Shown here one piece after another: positions 1 through 12,000 of a DNA stretch of 34,716 nucleotides; position 1 is the first letter of the stretch; each line of letters starts with the position of its first letter. The position numbers are program-made. Origin of the DNA: Nitrospirota bacterium (GTDB taxonomy: Bacteria > Nitrospirota > Thermodesulfovibrionia > Thermodesulfovibrionales > Dissulfurispiraceae); NCBI GenBank assembly GCA_040758355.1, contig JBFLWF010000026.1:1-34716 (forward strand), written 5' to 3'.

Positions 1-3000
1 TCCGGACTGCTTCATCCTTAAACTGCTTGTCATACTTCCTCCGTCCATTTCCTTCTTGCATTTGACACCTCCCATGGTTATATTGTACCTAACCTTTCGG
101 TGTGTCCGTAATACCGGGGGACGTGCATAGGTAGTATATTTATTATTGATTTGAGCAAATTTAACCAAAATTTAATGTCCGGTTGATACCGAGGAAATCT
201 TTATGCTTTAGTATTAGCCTATATAATTTTTAGAAATATCCATTCGTCCAATTGACTTTATCTGGATTTTGTCTAAAATGAAGACATATGCTTGACTTTA
301 AGAACTCTCGGGGGAGGATTAAATGGCTCGTTTATATCCGCGCATTGCAAGGAATATTCCTGTGGAGGTAGATGCAAAGCATATAAGAACAGAAGGGATG
401 CTTGCCAACCTCGGCATGAATGGCGCTTTTCTGATCCCCGATAAGAAATTAACCGGGGACAATGATAATGTTCTGCTTAAATACAATCTTTCCGAATTTG
501 GAGGTTTTGAGCACAGCGGCAAGATTATCAGGAAGGACAGGAGTGGTTACGCCTTAAAATTTTACGATCTTGACATCACTGCAAAGGTTAAACTCTGGAA
601 ATATATAGCTGATAATCTGACTGCTATTAACGAATGTCCTTATTGCGGAGAGAAGTATAATAAAATGCCGATGGTCTGTAATGCCTGCGGCTGGGAGCTT
701 ACCTTCAATTCCCCGGAATATTTTGCATATCACGAAAAGCAGAGCCTTCTTAAAAAATTATATTCAGAGGCAAATAGTCTCACTATAGATTATTTACAGA
801 GACTGATTAATTTTATGGAAGTAGAAATCCTGAAGACAGGCGGCAGCGAAGGGTTTCAGGAGTTTGTTGGGGCGAGCAGTGTTATGTTAGAGGTATTCTC
901 AAAAATCAGGAAGGTGGCTCCAACAGACCTTCCGGTGCTTATACTTGGCGAAAGTGGCACCGGCAAGGAATTGACTGCATTGGCAATTCATGAGAGGAGC
1001 CTGAGAAAGGACAAGACTTTCGTCACCATAAACTGTGCTGCGATACCAGAAGGTCTGCTTGAGGCAGAACTCTTTGGCTACGAAAGGGGGGCATTTACCG
1101 GAGCGTATGCCAGCAAAAAGGGAAAATTTGAGTGCGCGGGTGGCGGTACTATTTTCTTAGATGAGATTGGAGACATGCCTCTAAGCCTTCAATCAAAGCT
1201 TTTGAGATTCCTTCAGGACAGGGTTATTGAAAGGATAGGGGCGATAGGCGGGAAAAAAGTTGATGTGCGGCTTATTGCTGCTACTAACCGTGACCTCGGC
1301 TCAGCCATTGCAGAAGGCAGGTTCAGAAACGACCTTTATTACAGATTGAATGCCTTCACGATAAGTCTTCCTCCGGTTAGAGAGAGGGGGGAGGATAAAG
1401 TAATACTTGCAAAGCATTTTCTTAACAGATTTTGCAGGGAGATGGGTTTAACAAAGACATTTACAGGAGAAGCAATAGAGGCTGTAAGGGCCTACCCATG
1501 GCCCGGCAATGTCAGGGAGATGATTAATAAAATAAGAAGGGCTATTGTGATGGCTGAGGCCAACTCCATAAGTCAGCGGGATTTGGATTTAGCTGCGCAA
1601 CAGACAATGGATGTATCGAAGGATACAGGCTTGCGGGATGCAATAGAAAAAATTGAAGTGCAGAAGATTAAAGAGACATTGAATACCTGCGGCAATAATA
1701 TCTCGAGAGCAGCCAGGCAATTGGGTGTGAGCCGCCAGAGCCTTTACAACTACAAAAAGAAGTACGGCATATAAGAGACCCGTTTCGCTCTGTTTTACAT
1801 CTGTCCATAGGTTTTACACCGATTAATAATCCCGCCTTTATAACTTCAATAAAATCAAAGGAATTGCAGACAGGCATATTCTTTGCTCAATCAAGAATGG
1901 AATATTTTTTCAAAGGGGATGCAGGTGGGCAGGAATATGGCAGTGAATGCGATAAAAGGGGCGGGGGCATTTAACAAGACGGTCATAAGGTGCCCCCATC
2001 TAATAAAATGGGCCATACATACATGTAAGGCAGGAGATAAGCCTTATGCCCCGAGCCTTTTTGAGCTCATGGAATACTGCACAACCGGAGACCATAGAAA
2101 ATGCCCTTTTTATTTTAGAAATAAGGAATGTAGGGGGATTTCATAAGGGGGACAAAGTCCCCCTTATGCCAGGAGGAGATAAAGATGGACTTGATTTCTA
2201 TTTTAATGCTCTTACTGCCTTTAGCAGGCTGCATATACGCCTTTAACTTTAAGGCTTAAGGCCGATTAACGATATTTTGGTCTACAAAAAAGCGGCTCTA
2301 AATGCATACCGACTTCATGAAAGTGAATACCCATGGATCTTGAATTTATCGATACACGCTCATTGTCCGCCATACAGGATTCCATTTCAGAAATAACCGA
2401 CCTGTCTTTCTCCACCTATGACAGCGGTGGCGCCCTGTTGGCTCCTCCAAAGAAAGAGGACAGGCTGCTTGCCCAGATAAAGTCCTATGCCTCCGGCAGA
2501 GAGGAATATGAAAGATTCATCCGCGATGGAATAGAAAGGGCAGTTTTAAGGAAGGAGACATCCGTTATTAAAGGGATTGCCAATCAGCACCATCTTTTTA
2601 TCCCCATTGATGTTAACGGCTTTAAACTTGTTCTTGTCAGCAGTCCATTTTACTTTATAAGAACAGAATTTGAGGATTTTTTGATTAAAAAGGGGGAATA
2701 TTTCGGTTTTTTGCTATCACATCTTGAATCATGGCTGGAGACAATTAATTTTAAAGACTACCCATCTGTTCAAAAAATATCGACCCATGTAAAATCCATA
2801 TTCGAAACATTCCTGCAGGGCAGTTACGAAAAGAATCTGAACCGCAGGAGGTACCAGATGGCCAAGACAATGATAGATCTCACATTCAATACCCAATTGC
2901 CGGTACCTGTAAAAGATTTTTACTCATCGTTTCTTGATGCAATACTCTTTCTCTTTAGTGTTGACACCGTCTCTGTAATGGTCAAGGAGAAGAATTTTTT

Positions 3001-9000: not shown

Positions 9001-12000
9001 TTATCCTCTCTACAGGTCTTTATCCAATTATGGCATTCGATACGGATTTCCTCATCAGGTTTATCCCGCACCTCGGTCTTTCCATCTGGGCATACGAGGA
9101 GATGTCAAGGGGGTTCGGGAGAACCTTCCTCATAGAGCAGTATAGCATGATAAGGTTTTATACCCTCATCAGGTCTATTACAGGATTTTTAAAAAATAAG
9201 AGGCTGCGATTTAAGGTGACGCCAAAGACAGAATATAAAAAGACAGACCTTAAAATGCTCTTACCCCAGGTTTTGATACTTTCAGGAAGCGTTATAGCCA
9301 TCTCATATGCCATATCAGGGCTTGCCGCTTATAAAATTGAAAGGGGGATTGTTATAGCCAATATCTTCTGGGCTATTGTGAATACAGGCCTTTCATATGC
9401 TGCTGTTAAATACGCAATAGAGAAGATCCAGAGGAGAAGGGACTTCAGGTTCCCTGCCAATATCCTCGCAAGAAACCGTTTGATTGTAGTTGATGACCTC
9501 CACGAAAGAGGGGCGTCGATCCAGACAACCGAGAGGTTTGAGCTTGGATCCATATTATCATTACGCCTTTCCCTCGGTGACAAGACAGTTGAAATAAAGG
9601 GCATAGTCCTTTATATGAAAAAGAGCACTAATAGAAGAATCCCTGTCTACCACTATGGCATTGAGTTTGAGAAAAACGCAATGGATGTAAAGGATGCCAT
9701 TACTGCATATAATTTTTCCTTTGCCGTTAAGAAGATGATGACAGGCTTTTCTTTTGCGGGCATGACCCCTCTGGCAAACCTGCGGGCATATTTAAAACTG
9801 TAAATCGCGCAACATGTTTTTACATATTTCATTTCTGGTTAAATGATTGATTTATCAATCGCTCATCGGATTCATAATTTTAAATATGTCTAAAGGCTTT
9901 ACACTGGTCATAACCAATCCCCTTCCGAACCCAGCAAAATCAAGGGTTTAAAACTCTGGCATATCCTTTGCGTATTAATAAAGCATGGAAACGATCGACA
10001 GATATTCAATAGCAGCTTTAGTCGCAGCAGTCTTTTATTTCCTGATAATGCTCGCTGCAGGCAGGTGAGATGAAAAGACCGATTTTGATAATCTGGCTCA
10101 TTATCTGTCTTTTGCCCTTAACGGTAAAGGCAGAAGAGCCAGTTAAAGCTCCGGCAGGGGAGGGTGCAATCCTTGCCTTATCCCCCCACAGGCCTTGGAT
10201 CAAATTTGAGCCCCCCCTGCAGGAGTGGGAAAGAGAAGGGATAAGAAGTATCAGTGCTGATGAGATGGCTGATATAAGGGGTCGATCCCTGAAACCAGCC
10301 TCTACGCCAACATCTTCGGATGTTCAGCCCTCGTCCAGGGTGTCTGCCATAATTCTCTGGGATGAGGCGCATATAAATACCAATATGAGCGTGTCCATTG
10401 GACACAACAATAGGATGGTTAACTCATTAACTGTCACGGACAGATAAAAAAGGAGGTGAGAAAATGAAAAAGTTTCAGACCAATCTATTAGTATCCCTCA
10501 TGGCGCCGGCCATTATATCAACGGCCATTATATCAAGTGCCATTACAACTGTTGATGCCGGGGATGGTCTTATTATTAACCAGACCAATATATCGGGCAA
10601 TGCCCTCTCCGACTCAAGAGGTATTATCGGTGTAAACATGGCTGCCGGCGATGAAAACGCCCAGGTCAATGCAAGGGCAATAGTAATAGGTGAAGGGGTA
10701 CCGGTCTTATCAGACCTGAATATCCAGCAAAGGATTCACAATAAATTGACCCTCGGTTCACCTTCCTACAACCTCGATTATATTGGCGGCGATGCCTTTG
10801 CAGGAAGCGCAGGTATTATCTCCATTAACCAGACAGCAGGGAGCGGCACAGCACAGGCAAATCTTGTATCTATAGGCATTGGAGGCGGAAATGCTGTTCA
10901 GGCATCCCAGGCATCCATGGAACAACTGCTCATGTCCTATGGCAAGGTGGAAGGCAGTCTTGAGGGATACGAGGGGAAACGGTCTGACATCATCGATGGA
11001 AATGCCTTTTCAGGCAGCCATGGACTGGTTGTGGTAAACCAGTCAGCCGGATCAGCCAATCGTGTTTTTAACACAGTGGCTATCCAGTTTAAAGTTATTG
11101 AAATTCCATAAAAAGGAGGAAAGAAAGATGAAACGATTCATATTATCAATCGCTGCGATGGCTCTTACGCTGAGTCCATTTGTTGCACAGGCTGGTGACT
11201 ACAATCATGTCATCGACATCGAACAGTCCCTCGCTGTGAGCATCGAGAAGAATATCTATGAGAATACGAGTGTCGAAAACCATAAATACCTCGATGTGAG
11301 CATCGATGCTGATATCAAAATTAAAGGAAGCGAAGGGTATCGGCGTTGGAGGTACCTCACTGTGGACGGTCTTGCATCTGCCGAGATCAACAACAACCAG
11401 TTACTCAAAGAGAACATGGTTATTAACGAGGAGAACCCAAATACTGCAACTATCAGTGGCAGTGCACTTGAGGGCGCTGAAGGCAACATAGGTGTTAATA
11501 TTGTGGCAGGCGACAACAATGCCCAGGACAATCTGACAGCCATTGCCGCATCAGAGCAGGAAAAGTCAATGGCGGACGCTGAGATATTCAAGATACAGTC
11601 GAGCCTGTTGAACTTCACCTGCAACAAGGGAAGGACAAACAGCGCCTCTTTGGACGGCGATGCCTTCATGGGTGCAACAGGAAACATAGGTGTTAATGTT
11701 GCAGCAGGAAACAACAATGCCCAGTCCAATATGTTAGCCATTGCTGTCGCACCTTCAAAGGTCGGCATAGCAAAGGTGAGCATACACCAGGAATCAGCAG
11801 GAAACATGACCATGAACAAGCCTGTAAAGGTGGAAGAAGTGCAAAGAATACCTGTGAGCCTTAGACTCTCTGCAAACCTTAACGGCGGTTATGAAGGTGG
11901 ATATATCGGATTTGCAGGCGGCAGCTACAGCGGCAGAGAAAGCGGAACATACAGAGGCAGTGAAAGTGGAACAACGAGCGGAATGAGCTATCAGGCAAAC

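Follow-up and report, generated by a model that had tools for sequence, protein, structure and literature searches.

Does a sigma54-dependent activator that carries a PilZ domain turn on the matrix genes beside it when c-di-GMP rises? This question is raised by a locus on contig JBFLWF010000026.1 of a Nitrospirota bacterium of the family Dissulfurispiraceae (assembly GCA_040758355.1; G000 among the genomes compared here), which we analysed as one window of 34,716 nucleotides; all features described below lie on its + strand. An initial annotation had proposed that the activator senses c-di-GMP directly and acts on the neighbouring biofilm genes. We found partial support for this proposal in boxes at a fixed distance, in the agreement between box and helix, and in linkage to fap and curli genes across Desulfobacterota. 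Our best explanation of the whole, which we put at a probability of about 0.55, is that a PilZ-zinc ribbon sigma54 activator of the PrsR branch is switched on by c-di-GMP and drives the promoters of the locus.

The PilZ-zinc ribbon module and its family

The activator gene (323..1774) encodes an enhancer-binding protein (bEBP) of 483 aa with a PrsR-clade AAA+/HTH part, as assigned from Pfam, an AlphaFold model and trees. Its PilZ domain (329..610, residues 3-96; 32.5 bits against a Pfam cut-off of 22.5) contains RLYPR (3-7), NLGMNG (29-34) and the conserved residues R70 and W92. It is followed by a CxxC-x10-CxxC zinc ribbon (635..688, residues 105-122; CPYC 105-108, CNAC 119-122), which is backed by models and by Pfam zinc-ribbon matches in relatives. 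Two helices (133-171) come next, and then a linker (173-180) modelled with low confidence. The remainder (866..1771) matches Sigma54_activat in Pfam (233.6 bits, residues 182-347) and likewise the AAA lid and HTH_8, with an SRQSLY helix (470-475) in the Fis HTH. Walker A (209), GAFTGA (256), Walker B (277), an arginine-finger stretch (335-342) and the Fis HTH are all there, as in AAA+ proteins of the sigma54 bEBP type, and rpoN is found in the source genome. The architecture given in the initial annotation is confirmed by Pfam, motifs and fold, and the protein is almost certainly a functional activator.

In a Foldseek search, the full-length model (pLDDT 90.9) matched ZraR/NtrC1/FlrC-type structures. 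Because this search gave AAA+ matches alone, we modelled the N-terminal part by itself. This model is a beta-barrel with a C-terminal helix and aligns with c-di-GMP-bound PilZ domains of MotI (Z 13.8, rmsd 1.9, 100 aligned) and Alg44 (Z 13.1), in a search that barely probed the ribbon and helices (residues 103-172). A profile search against solved structures gave the ribbon a weak match to ribosomal zinc ribbons, and we infer that its four cysteines bind zinc. The N-terminal part had no match in the plasmid collection, and a weak match to it elsewhere in the source genome (contig C22) is an unrelated protein.

How far do relatives share the module? The initial annotation had counted the N-terminal part in 30 of 317 genomes of the order. 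Our search found it in 34 of 317, two of them weak matches with stops, and what had been counted is mostly another protein: in 28 of the 32 genomes with a real match, the PilZ-ribbon is fused to a PhcB-like SAM methyltransferase of the same length as the activator. Only four (G000, G027, G115, G160) have the sigma54 activator; G115 has both forms, one match is broken off at a contig end, and G000 has no methyltransferase form. The fatty-acid neighbours that had been held against a link to biofilm genes flank the methyltransferase form and not the activator, which rules out fatty-acid genes as activator targets. The 12 protein-database homologs noted previously were reproduced, but the family is larger than 12.

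Both c-di-GMP motifs had been reported in the activator and as kept in 15 of 15 aligned sequences. For RxxxR this holds: it is present in 75 of 75 activators (de-duplicated at 90%) and in 36 of 36 methyltransferase fusions. The second motif fits only in a relaxed form. Here NLGMNG has Gly in place of the Ser of canonical [D/N]hSxxG and so lacks a counterpart of the ligand-contacting Ser37 of MapZ, and across the 75 activators it is canonical ([D/N]h[S/A]xxG) in 27, [D/N]hGxxG as here in 18, EhSxxG in 9 and otherwise in 21. All four ribbon cysteines are kept by 74 of the 75 activators, and R70 by 64; GAFTGA is missing from 11 of 65 full-length activators and Walker A from 14.

These counts bear on an alternative that we consider unlikely, in which the activator drives the promoters but its PilZ-ribbon is blind to c-di-GMP: the module may have a structural role or mediate protein contacts, or the sensing may be done by the ribbon (of redox or zinc, plausible in an anaerobe). 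The Ser-to-Gly change, a non-canonical second motif in 48 of 75 activators and ribbon cysteines as conserved as the PilZ arginines would all fit, and some PilZ domains do not bind c-di-GMP (PlpA; the survey 10.1101/814665). However, none of the 111 de-duplicated fusions, which span two output enzymes, has lost RxxxR, and a cyclase and two PilZ synthases are encoded in the locus. The same survey describes motif loss in non-binding PilZ domains, and binding by PA2989 despite an altered second motif (10.1101/814665). Judged from its sequence, the activator's PilZ domain is predicted to bind c-di-GMP, and we think that it probably does.

More speculatively, the PilZ-zinc ribbon may be a portable c-di-GMP input module (possibly redox- or zinc-sensitive too) that Nitrospirota, Desulfobacterota and Aquificota share. 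It would have been fused with sigma54 activators on at least two occasions, once with an AraC regulator and once with a PhcB-like quorum-signal methyltransferase. On a PrsR-branch activator it would form a master matrix switch (Fap, curli, cellulose-type polymer, Tad pili) that feeds back positively via its own cyclase, in a cassette moving between phyla. We think this wider picture less likely than not; if true, the methyltransferase fusion would put fatty-acid methyl ester signal synthesis directly under c-di-GMP control.

Enhancer boxes, promoters and the PrsR branch

The locus contains four sigma54-type promoters (recognised at consensus level), each with a 17-bp TGT-N11-ACA box of the PEP-CTERM type 69-81 bp upstream. 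The first pair (1802..1887; box 1802-1818, -24/-12 site 1872-1887, distance 70) precedes small ORFs and the diguanylate cyclase gene and is conserved in G027, L097 and L098. Behind it lie a Cys-rich ORF of 69 aa without a family (1937..2146), frameshifted in G027, and the cyclase gene (2333..4348; 671 aa, PocR-GAF-GGDEF, with GGEEF and an RxxD I-site). Between 1872 and the cyclase gene, the scan listed no terminator-like site in intergenic DNA, which allows co-transcription but does not demonstrate it. The second pair (4351..4447; box 4351-4367, site 4432-4447, distance 81) precedes a 64-aa ORF with no assigned function (4517..4711), whose homologs lie directly 3' of the activator gene in G560, G570 and G482. 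The third (4761..4845; box 4761-4777, site 4830-4845, distance 69) precedes bcsA1, and the fourth (9887..9972; box 9887-9903, site 9957-9972, distance 70) precedes the fap-like operon and encloses, at 9938-9950, what we take to be an IHF-consensus match. The initial annotation had placed sigma54-type sites at 4432 and 9957 before bcs and fap. Both sites are there, but 4432 adjoins the 64-aa ORF and the bcsA promoter is the one at 4830, which, like that at 1872, is absent from that annotation. A fifth, orphan box (16068..16084) has no -24/-12 site behind it; a similar box in G027 precedes a csgG-like gene, which is missing here.

Genome-wide, only four of 61 extended boxes have a -24/-12 site behind them, all in the activator locus. 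With a matrix built from 15 boxes of other genomes, the four locus sites rank 1-4 of 66 intergenic sigma54 sites, a ranking that is partly circular because these four sites had served to define the box and its pattern had been used to pick the training boxes. The composite of box and promoter occurs in 43 of 401 genomes of the phylum, as compared to one for a reversed control, and the three same-genus genomes without the activator gene have no composite site either. A scan for sigma70 promoters gave chance level (35 vs 32.4 ± 4.9). Among the matches listed, the composite lies upstream of a gene with a PEP-CTERM-like C-terminus in 12 of 30 loci (judged by eye), which fits Haft motif 1, 17 nt that end in TTTACA, with the sigma54 site 62.8 ± 10.6 nt further on (PMC1569441). 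No PEP-CTERM gene was found in the source genome by pattern or by model, the model being silent in control genomes too.

The best NCBIfam match of the activator is PrsR (TIGR02915; 397 bits, model positions 129-444 only). It is not itself a PrsR member, since it lacks the receiver domain and falls below the cut-off of 502.6. In quick trees without bootstrap, 30 PilZ activators and four PrsR proteins form one branch (SH-aLRT 99). The activator has the AAA+/HTH branch, the helix type and the 17-bp box with its spacing in common with PrsR, whereas the genes behind the box are fap, bcs, curli and small ones; the PrsR branch and PEP-CTERM box appear to be reused for amyloid and polysaccharide genes. 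Among the 29 bEBP-like proteins of G000, this activator alone has an SR[PQ][ST]LY-type (PrsR-type) helix, and no PrsR in that genome scores above cut-off.

Could the boxes instead be read by another of the genome's 28 bEBP-like proteins, with the activator gene a passenger or a minor input? bEBPs commonly use TGT-N-ACA palindromes, the PrsR model gives several receiver-type ones 420-450 bits over its whole length, and G482 and G437 hold a true PrsR beside the PilZ activator. We nevertheless find this very improbable: the PrsR branch of the tree takes in none of the other 27 bEBPs of G000, 0 of 28 has the PrsR-type helix, box, promoter and PilZ activator occur in G027 and G519 without a PrsR above cut-off, and the cassette reached another phylum together with the activator gene. 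The predicted activator very probably acts on these four promoters.

c-di-GMP as a probable activating signal

The domains, catalytic motifs, PilZ fold, boxes, promoters and linkage, which are seen in sequence or models, suggest how such a switch would work. In a PrsR-branch activator, the phosphorylation receiver would have been swapped for the PilZ-zinc ribbon module. Rising c-di-GMP would bind the N-terminal RxxxR loop and the barrel of the PilZ domain, and the signal would pass from the PilZ C-terminal helix through the ribbon and the two helices to the AAA+ domain, which would be freed to oligomerise. With the HTH on the TGT-N11-ACA boxes, DNA looping, probably aided by IHF, would lead to opening of the four sigma54 promoters. 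Outputs would be the diguanylate cyclase unit, the small protein, the BcsA-BcsS-BcsA operon, whose synthases have PilZ domains of their own, and the Fap amyloid operon. The chances that the locus cyclase provides positive feedback are about even.

N-terminal domains of bEBPs can exert negative or positive control. Alternatively, c-di-GMP might bind and inhibit the activator, or gate it such that a second signal is required. We think this quite improbable. FleQ and FlrA are inhibited by c-di-GMP (PMC12564702); however, the targets here are matrix genes, and BerB and BrfA, sigma54 activators of matrix genes, are stimulated at high c-di-GMP. Binding would very likely activate.

As is proposed for our activator, the c-di-GMP-sensing bEBP BrfA of Pseudomonas fluorescens activates a -24/-12 promoter before fapA (PMC9207406, PMC13101488). 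Like BrfA-type bEBPs, our activator is linked to a fap operon that has a sigma54 promoter; brfA follows fapF on the opposite strand, as the PilZ activators do in G115 and many Desulfobacterota loci. BrfA was compared by description only (an ORF of 1326 bp, with no mention of PilZ in the searched text of the BrfA papers), and the fap-linked bEBPs of Aeromonas and Photobacterium, our stand-ins for it, have a VpsR domain and no PilZ. Our activator has no VpsR match in Pfam and is not of this VpsR-domain type. BerB of Burkholderia cenocepacia, described without an N-terminal sensory domain, acts through berA; its activating mechanism was left open in the paper (PMC5552954). FleQ, FlrA and VpsR are likewise c-di-GMP-responsive biofilm regulators of the bEBP type, with c-di-GMP at the AAA+ or receiver-like region; like BerB, they are described without a PilZ domain. 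MrkH of Klebsiella pneumoniae, a PilZ-containing activator of adhesin genes (its PilZ against our model, Z 12.0), is not of the AAA+ sigma54 type and has a different DNA-binding domain. We found no description of a PilZ-bEBP fusion in literature seen mostly as titles and abstracts; the accessible text of the PilZ survey has 0 passages with 'zinc' and 0 with 'Fis', and its supplementary tables could list such fusions (10.1101/814665). From its sequence, the activator appears to wire in a new way a biofilm switch of which Pseudomonas already shows the logic (BrfA-like, with a different sensor). A bEBP with a discrete PilZ input, named residues and four promoters would be a clean system for how c-di-GMP switches on an AAA+ activator, and the finding points to a likely regulator of biofilm, with its regulon, in phyla that are mostly uncultured.

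Matrix genes and the conserved target

The described locus, with a diguanylate cyclase, two BcsA-PilZ genes, bcsS and a fap operon after the activator, is as the initial annotation had it, the operon being fap-like; GC content gives no island signal. Two BcsA-like GT2-PilZ synthase genes, bcsA1 (4880..7078) and bcsA2 (7950..9803), enclose bcsS (7123..7947; PF17036 in Pfam). The D,D,D,QxxRW (DAD, TED, QRLRW in bcsA1) and PilZ features of cellulose synthase are there, with RxxxR kept, and these together with the adjacent bcsS speak for cellulose. Scores of only 453-456 bits where the CelA cut-off is 699, DLHERG as the second PilZ motif, and the lack of a BcsB match in a genome that is 99% complete (control positive in E. 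coli and B. subtilis) speak against it. That these enzymes do not make exported cellulose, and that 'cellulose locus' is a misnomer whatever the regulation, seems to us possible, if the less probable reading.

The fap-like operon (10070..15229) unites in one unit a fapA-like gene (10070-10447, assigned by position only), fapB-like (10464-11111) and fapC-like (11062-12576) genes with FapB/C repeats, a fapD-like gene for a C39 peptidase (12631-13374), a fapE-like gene (13352-14008) and a fapF-like gene for a FapF barrel (14210-15229); the NCBIfam matches for B-F are all below the Pseudomonas equivalog cut-offs. Among Desulfobacterota, 20 of 31 activator loci lie beside fap genes and two beside curli genes. 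FapF is present in 22 of 29 module-positive genomes as compared to 6 of 372 others, a co-occurrence that is overstated because the genomes are kin. The conserved target of the activator family is amyloid, not cellulose; bcs genes were seen only in the source genome and its closest relatives.

In 13 fap-linked Desulfobacterota loci that we scanned, a sigma54 site was found in 11 and the box (8-9 of 9 positions) only in L187, L197 and L200; G560, G495 and G600 gave no box. Nine Nitrospirota genomes outside the order (G437, G464, G482, G495, G519, G540, G543, G570, G580) carry a PrsR-branch or degenerate activator, whose neighbours are a 64-aa ORF, an amidase, a deacylase or a cytochrome and not matrix genes. 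One cassette of a Pseudomonadota MAG unites box, promoter and fap-like operon with an activator that is 87% identical, and it holds the only composite site of that MAG. Fap systems, reported in 2013 from Beta-, Gamma- and Deltaproteobacteria (PMC3792158), are extended by the present locus to Nitrospirota.

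A PilZ-zinc ribbon module on a sigma54 activator

The activator gene (323-1774, + strand) encodes a 483-aa protein in which Pfam recognizes PilZ (residues 3-96; 32.5 bits, cut-off 22.5), Sigma54_activat (residues 182-347), an AAA lid and HTH_8, and its catalytic motifs are complete (GESGTGKE at 209, GAFTGA at 256, IFLDE at 277 and RNDLYYRL at 335). In the full-length AlphaFold model (mean pLDDT 90.9), a six-strand barrel leads into a helix (85-97), the ribbon and two further helices (133-151 and 155-169), and a low-confidence linker (173-180) separates these from the AAA+ and then the HTH domain. 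When the N-terminal 172 residues were modelled separately (pLDDT 91.4), residues 1-102 matched c-di-GMP-bound PilZ structures (MotI, Z 13.8; Alg44, 13.1; PP4397, 12.6; YcgR, 12.5; MrkH, 12.0), and Foldseek concurs. The domains, the model and the fold matches thus bear out the initial annotation of a PilZ domain, a zinc ribbon and a sigma54 activator. Its close homologs bear names that indicate Nitrospirota.

That annotation also described both c-di-GMP motifs as kept, which we found to hold for the first motif. Among 75 activators de-duplicated at 90%, RxxxR is present in all 75, the four ribbon cysteines in 74, W92 in 71 and R70 in 64. At the second motif, 27 are canonical, 18 read [D/N]hGxxG, nine read EhSxxG and 21 have other forms; the window activator carries the Gly variant and so matches the canonical PilZ motifs in part. 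The available portion of a PilZ survey gives this motif as [D/N]hSxxG, with the Ser contacting the ligand, and describes one binder with an altered first position (10.1101/814665). Of 36 proteins where the same module is fused to a methyltransferase, all have RxxxR and 31 have the Gly variant. Because the arginines are invariant across two unrelated output enzymes, the sequences argue for ligand binding by the module, with the second motif agreeing incompletely. Among 65 full-length activators, GAFTGA is kept in 54 and Walker A in 51. Three family members (L188, L189 and L089) have degenerate AAA+ domains with neither Walker A nor GAFTGA, and are possible repressors or anti-activators.

Output domains joined to the module

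Residues 1-175, used as a query against 317 genomes of the order, give hits in 34, but in two of these the hit is weak and contains stops. The 30 matched loci listed comprise three with an AAA+ domain, 26 with a class I SAM methyltransferase and one that is truncated; four further places yielded one activator (G115) and three methyltransferases. The N-terminal family, previously presented as sigma54 activators, therefore consists mostly of methyltransferase fusions in this order, and the activator is present in 4 of the 32 genomes with a real match. The methyltransferase form (L004, L034-L050, L159, L161, L164-L166) is carried by 28 genomes of the order, and several Desulfobacterota have it too. 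It adjoins either a fabG/fabF/fabF/ACP/FAD oxidoreductase set or a membrane hybrid histidine kinase. The objection that the activator lies beside fatty-acid synthesis genes elsewhere in the order misses its target, because the fabG/fabF/ACP genes flank the methyltransferase form, which is another protein. One of nine methyltransferase-form proteins looked up bears the source name '3-hydroxypalmitic acid methyl ester biosynthesis protein', a label that we take to denote PhcB; this form may be a c-di-GMP-gated quorum-signal synthase.

The activator family had also been sized too small, and we found a wider set. Among 401 genomes of the Nitrospirota phylum, a profile search added 12 with a complete N-terminal region, fused to a bEBP in 11 and to an AraC-type output in one. 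The phylum to which G600 (a Thermodesulfobacteriota record) belongs was likewise sampled with 401 genomes, and 29 of these have the module. About 30 representatives at 50% identity fall among ranks P0013-P0113, one of them named Persephonella. The AraC-type HTH fusion (L088:6501-7682) lies upstream of multiheme cytochrome genes, and stand-alone PilZ-ribbon clusters occur in the Atlas as leads under 0.9.

Sigma54 promoters and the protein that probably reads their boxes

The sigma54-like sites noted earlier at 4432 and 9957 are present, and we found two more at 1872 and 4830. Each of the four has a TGT-N11-ACA box upstream, at 70 (1872), 81 (4432), 69 (4830) and 70 bp (9957), so the distances spread over about one helical turn. 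Across the 2.77 Mb genome there are 61 extended boxes, and a -24/-12 site lies behind four of them, all at this locus; the plain palindrome stands at 60-95 bp in 7 of 66 intergenic sigma54 sites, four of the seven being these. Since the box was defined from the four window sites, other genomes served as outside tests: the composite of box and promoter occurs in 43 of 401 Nitrospirota-phylum genomes versus one for the reversed control, and in 12 of the 30 composite-site loci listed the downstream gene has a PEP-CTERM-like tail. A matrix built from 15 foreign boxes, themselves picked with the window-derived pattern, ranks the four window sites 1-4 of 66. In the accessible text of Haft et al., the same element, 17 nt ending in TTTACA, is matched to PrsR and placed 62.8 ± 10.6 nt before the sigma54 site (PMC1569441); for a PEP-CTERM gene, the part available of a later report confirms RpoN dependence and terms the enhancer predicted (PMC9850573).

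The activator's best NCBIfam match is likewise PrsR (TIGR02915), under cut-off and without a receiver. In a quick IQ-TREE run on the AAA+/HTH parts, 30 PilZ activators and four PrsR proteins share one branch (SH-aLRT 99); the run covered four of six PrsR loci and left aside contig fragments and sequences whose Walker A could not be recognised. Support for the branch is 96 in a tree enlarged by sequences from Desulfobacterota and by a fap-linked bEBP with a VpsR domain from Aeromonas, with 13 near-duplicate rows dropped and no Photobacterium row; the Aeromonas row sits on a long branch of unsure placement. Three PilZ activators outside the branch are a second fusion. At L090:5246-6802 and L092:2516-4273, the module is independently fused to a non-PrsR bEBP, and S8 peptidase genes follow both.

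In the window's genome we found neither a PrsR over cut-off nor, by pattern and model search with a weak model control, a PEP-CTERM gene, and among its 29 bEBP-like proteins the window activator is the sole carrier of the SR[PQ][ST]LY helix of PrsR. Two other genomes (G027 and G519) likewise combine box, promoter and PilZ activator with no PrsR over cut-off. The composite site is absent from three same-genus genomes without the activator gene, which is weak evidence because gene and sites are linked.

Small ORFs accompany these promoters. A 64-aa protein of no family (4517-4711) lies downstream of a box-bearing promoter; its homologs directly follow the activator gene in three genomes (G560, G570 and G482), and it may be a feedback regulator. 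Tiny hydrophobic ORFs of 24 and 27 aa (2185-2259 and 9985-10068) also lie downstream of such promoters, the former with a strong ribosome-binding site and kept in G027. An orphan box lies at 16068-16084, beside one copy of an 83-aa ORF and without csgG; in G027 (L032:4130-5676), box, promoter and a csgG-like gene lie between two copies of this ORF, and the window region looks like a deletion remnant.

Activator neighbourhoods and relation to known systems

The gene set noted earlier follows the activator gene. Its cyclase (PocR-GAF-GGDEF) has both GGEEF and an I-site, bcsS is flanked by genes for two BcsA-like synthases, and the operon after these is fap-like. Our best reading, to which we give a little better than even odds (about 0.55), is that the activator drives the four sigma54 promoters in a c-di-GMP-dependent manner and that the cyclase may form part of a feedback loop. 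The observation is real, coherent and testable. On this reading the activator resembles the Pseudomonas fluorescens bEBP BrfA, which in the accessible parts of the reports senses c-di-GMP, is encoded on the opposite strand after fapF and activates the sigma54 promoter of fapA (PMC9207406, PMC13101488, 10.64898/2026.01.27.702051), and also BerB, as far as its available text goes (PMC5552954). Pfam finds no VpsR domain in the window activator, whereas two fap-linked gammaproteobacterial bEBPs have one, serving as stand-ins for BrfA, itself compared by description alone; we therefore keep the activator apart from the BrfA/BerB type. The available parts of two c-di-GMP effector reviews (PMC7288161, PMC12564702) and of a Myxococcus PilZ survey (PMC8316039) do not name a PilZ-bEBP, and we found no description of this fusion in the literature searched, which lay outside subscription journals and bioRxiv supplements. 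Our analysis separates the activator from the methyltransferase form and links it to the PrsR branch and a PEP-CTERM-type box. It also adds a proposed four-promoter regulon that takes in bcs and the cyclase unit, neighbourhoods with curli or Tad genes, and a cross-phylum cassette.

In a Desulfobacterota sample of 31 activator loci, the stretch examined holds fap genes in 20, curli genes in two and neither in nine. Both curli operons directly follow the activator and have a box at -69; G656 shows csgA/B/E/F/G, and in G977 the first gene alone is visible. The nine include three contigs of about 2 kb, two degenerate AAA+ domains and one N-terminal fragment lying at the end of a contig; in the genome of this fragment, a C-terminal activator piece adjoins fapF. 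The box before Desulfobacterota fap operons is mostly weak or absent: of 13 scanned, three match it at 8-9 of the nine positions. In G600's phylum, FapF occurs in 28 of the 401 genomes and together with the module in 22, which are kin and non-independent. The accessible part of a 2013 survey by Dueholm confines Fap to three proteobacterial classes (PMC3792158).

Within Nitrospirota, fap genes accompany the activator in the window's genome, G027 and G115 (box at -69), and bcs genes in the first two and L097 alone. A Flp/Tad operon adjoins it in G160, where the box has one mismatch. In Nitrospirota genomes outside the order the neighbours are non-matrix genes, though three of these genomes (G519, G570 and G482) keep box and promoter directly 3' of the activator gene. 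A Pseudomonadota MAG has a single composite site, and its box and promoter lie with fap-like genes and an activator of 87% identity between ORFs that by eye resemble insertion sequences; transfer of this cassette is likely, mis-assembly being the alternative.

The window's fap-like operon (10070-15229) shares 45% (FapD) and 46% (FapF) identity with its counterpart in G027 (L031-L032), while the genes flanking it are about 90% identical between these same-genus genomes, a pattern that suggests exchange as a cassette behind the same promoter. The two BcsA-like synthases with bcsS (4880-9803) are about 72% identical and form an unusual minimal set, bcsB not being found in this genome. The stretch after the fap operon (16161-25019) encodes type II secretion components (E, F, G, I, J, K, L and M-like), among them a GspE that matches MshEN, together with an S8 peptidase and a PrcB-like protein. 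Upstream of the activator in G027 (L031:6060-7975) are receiver-AraC, LuxR and STAS-like genes; close homologs of the latter two lie on contig C77 of the window's genome, and this contig probably precedes the window.
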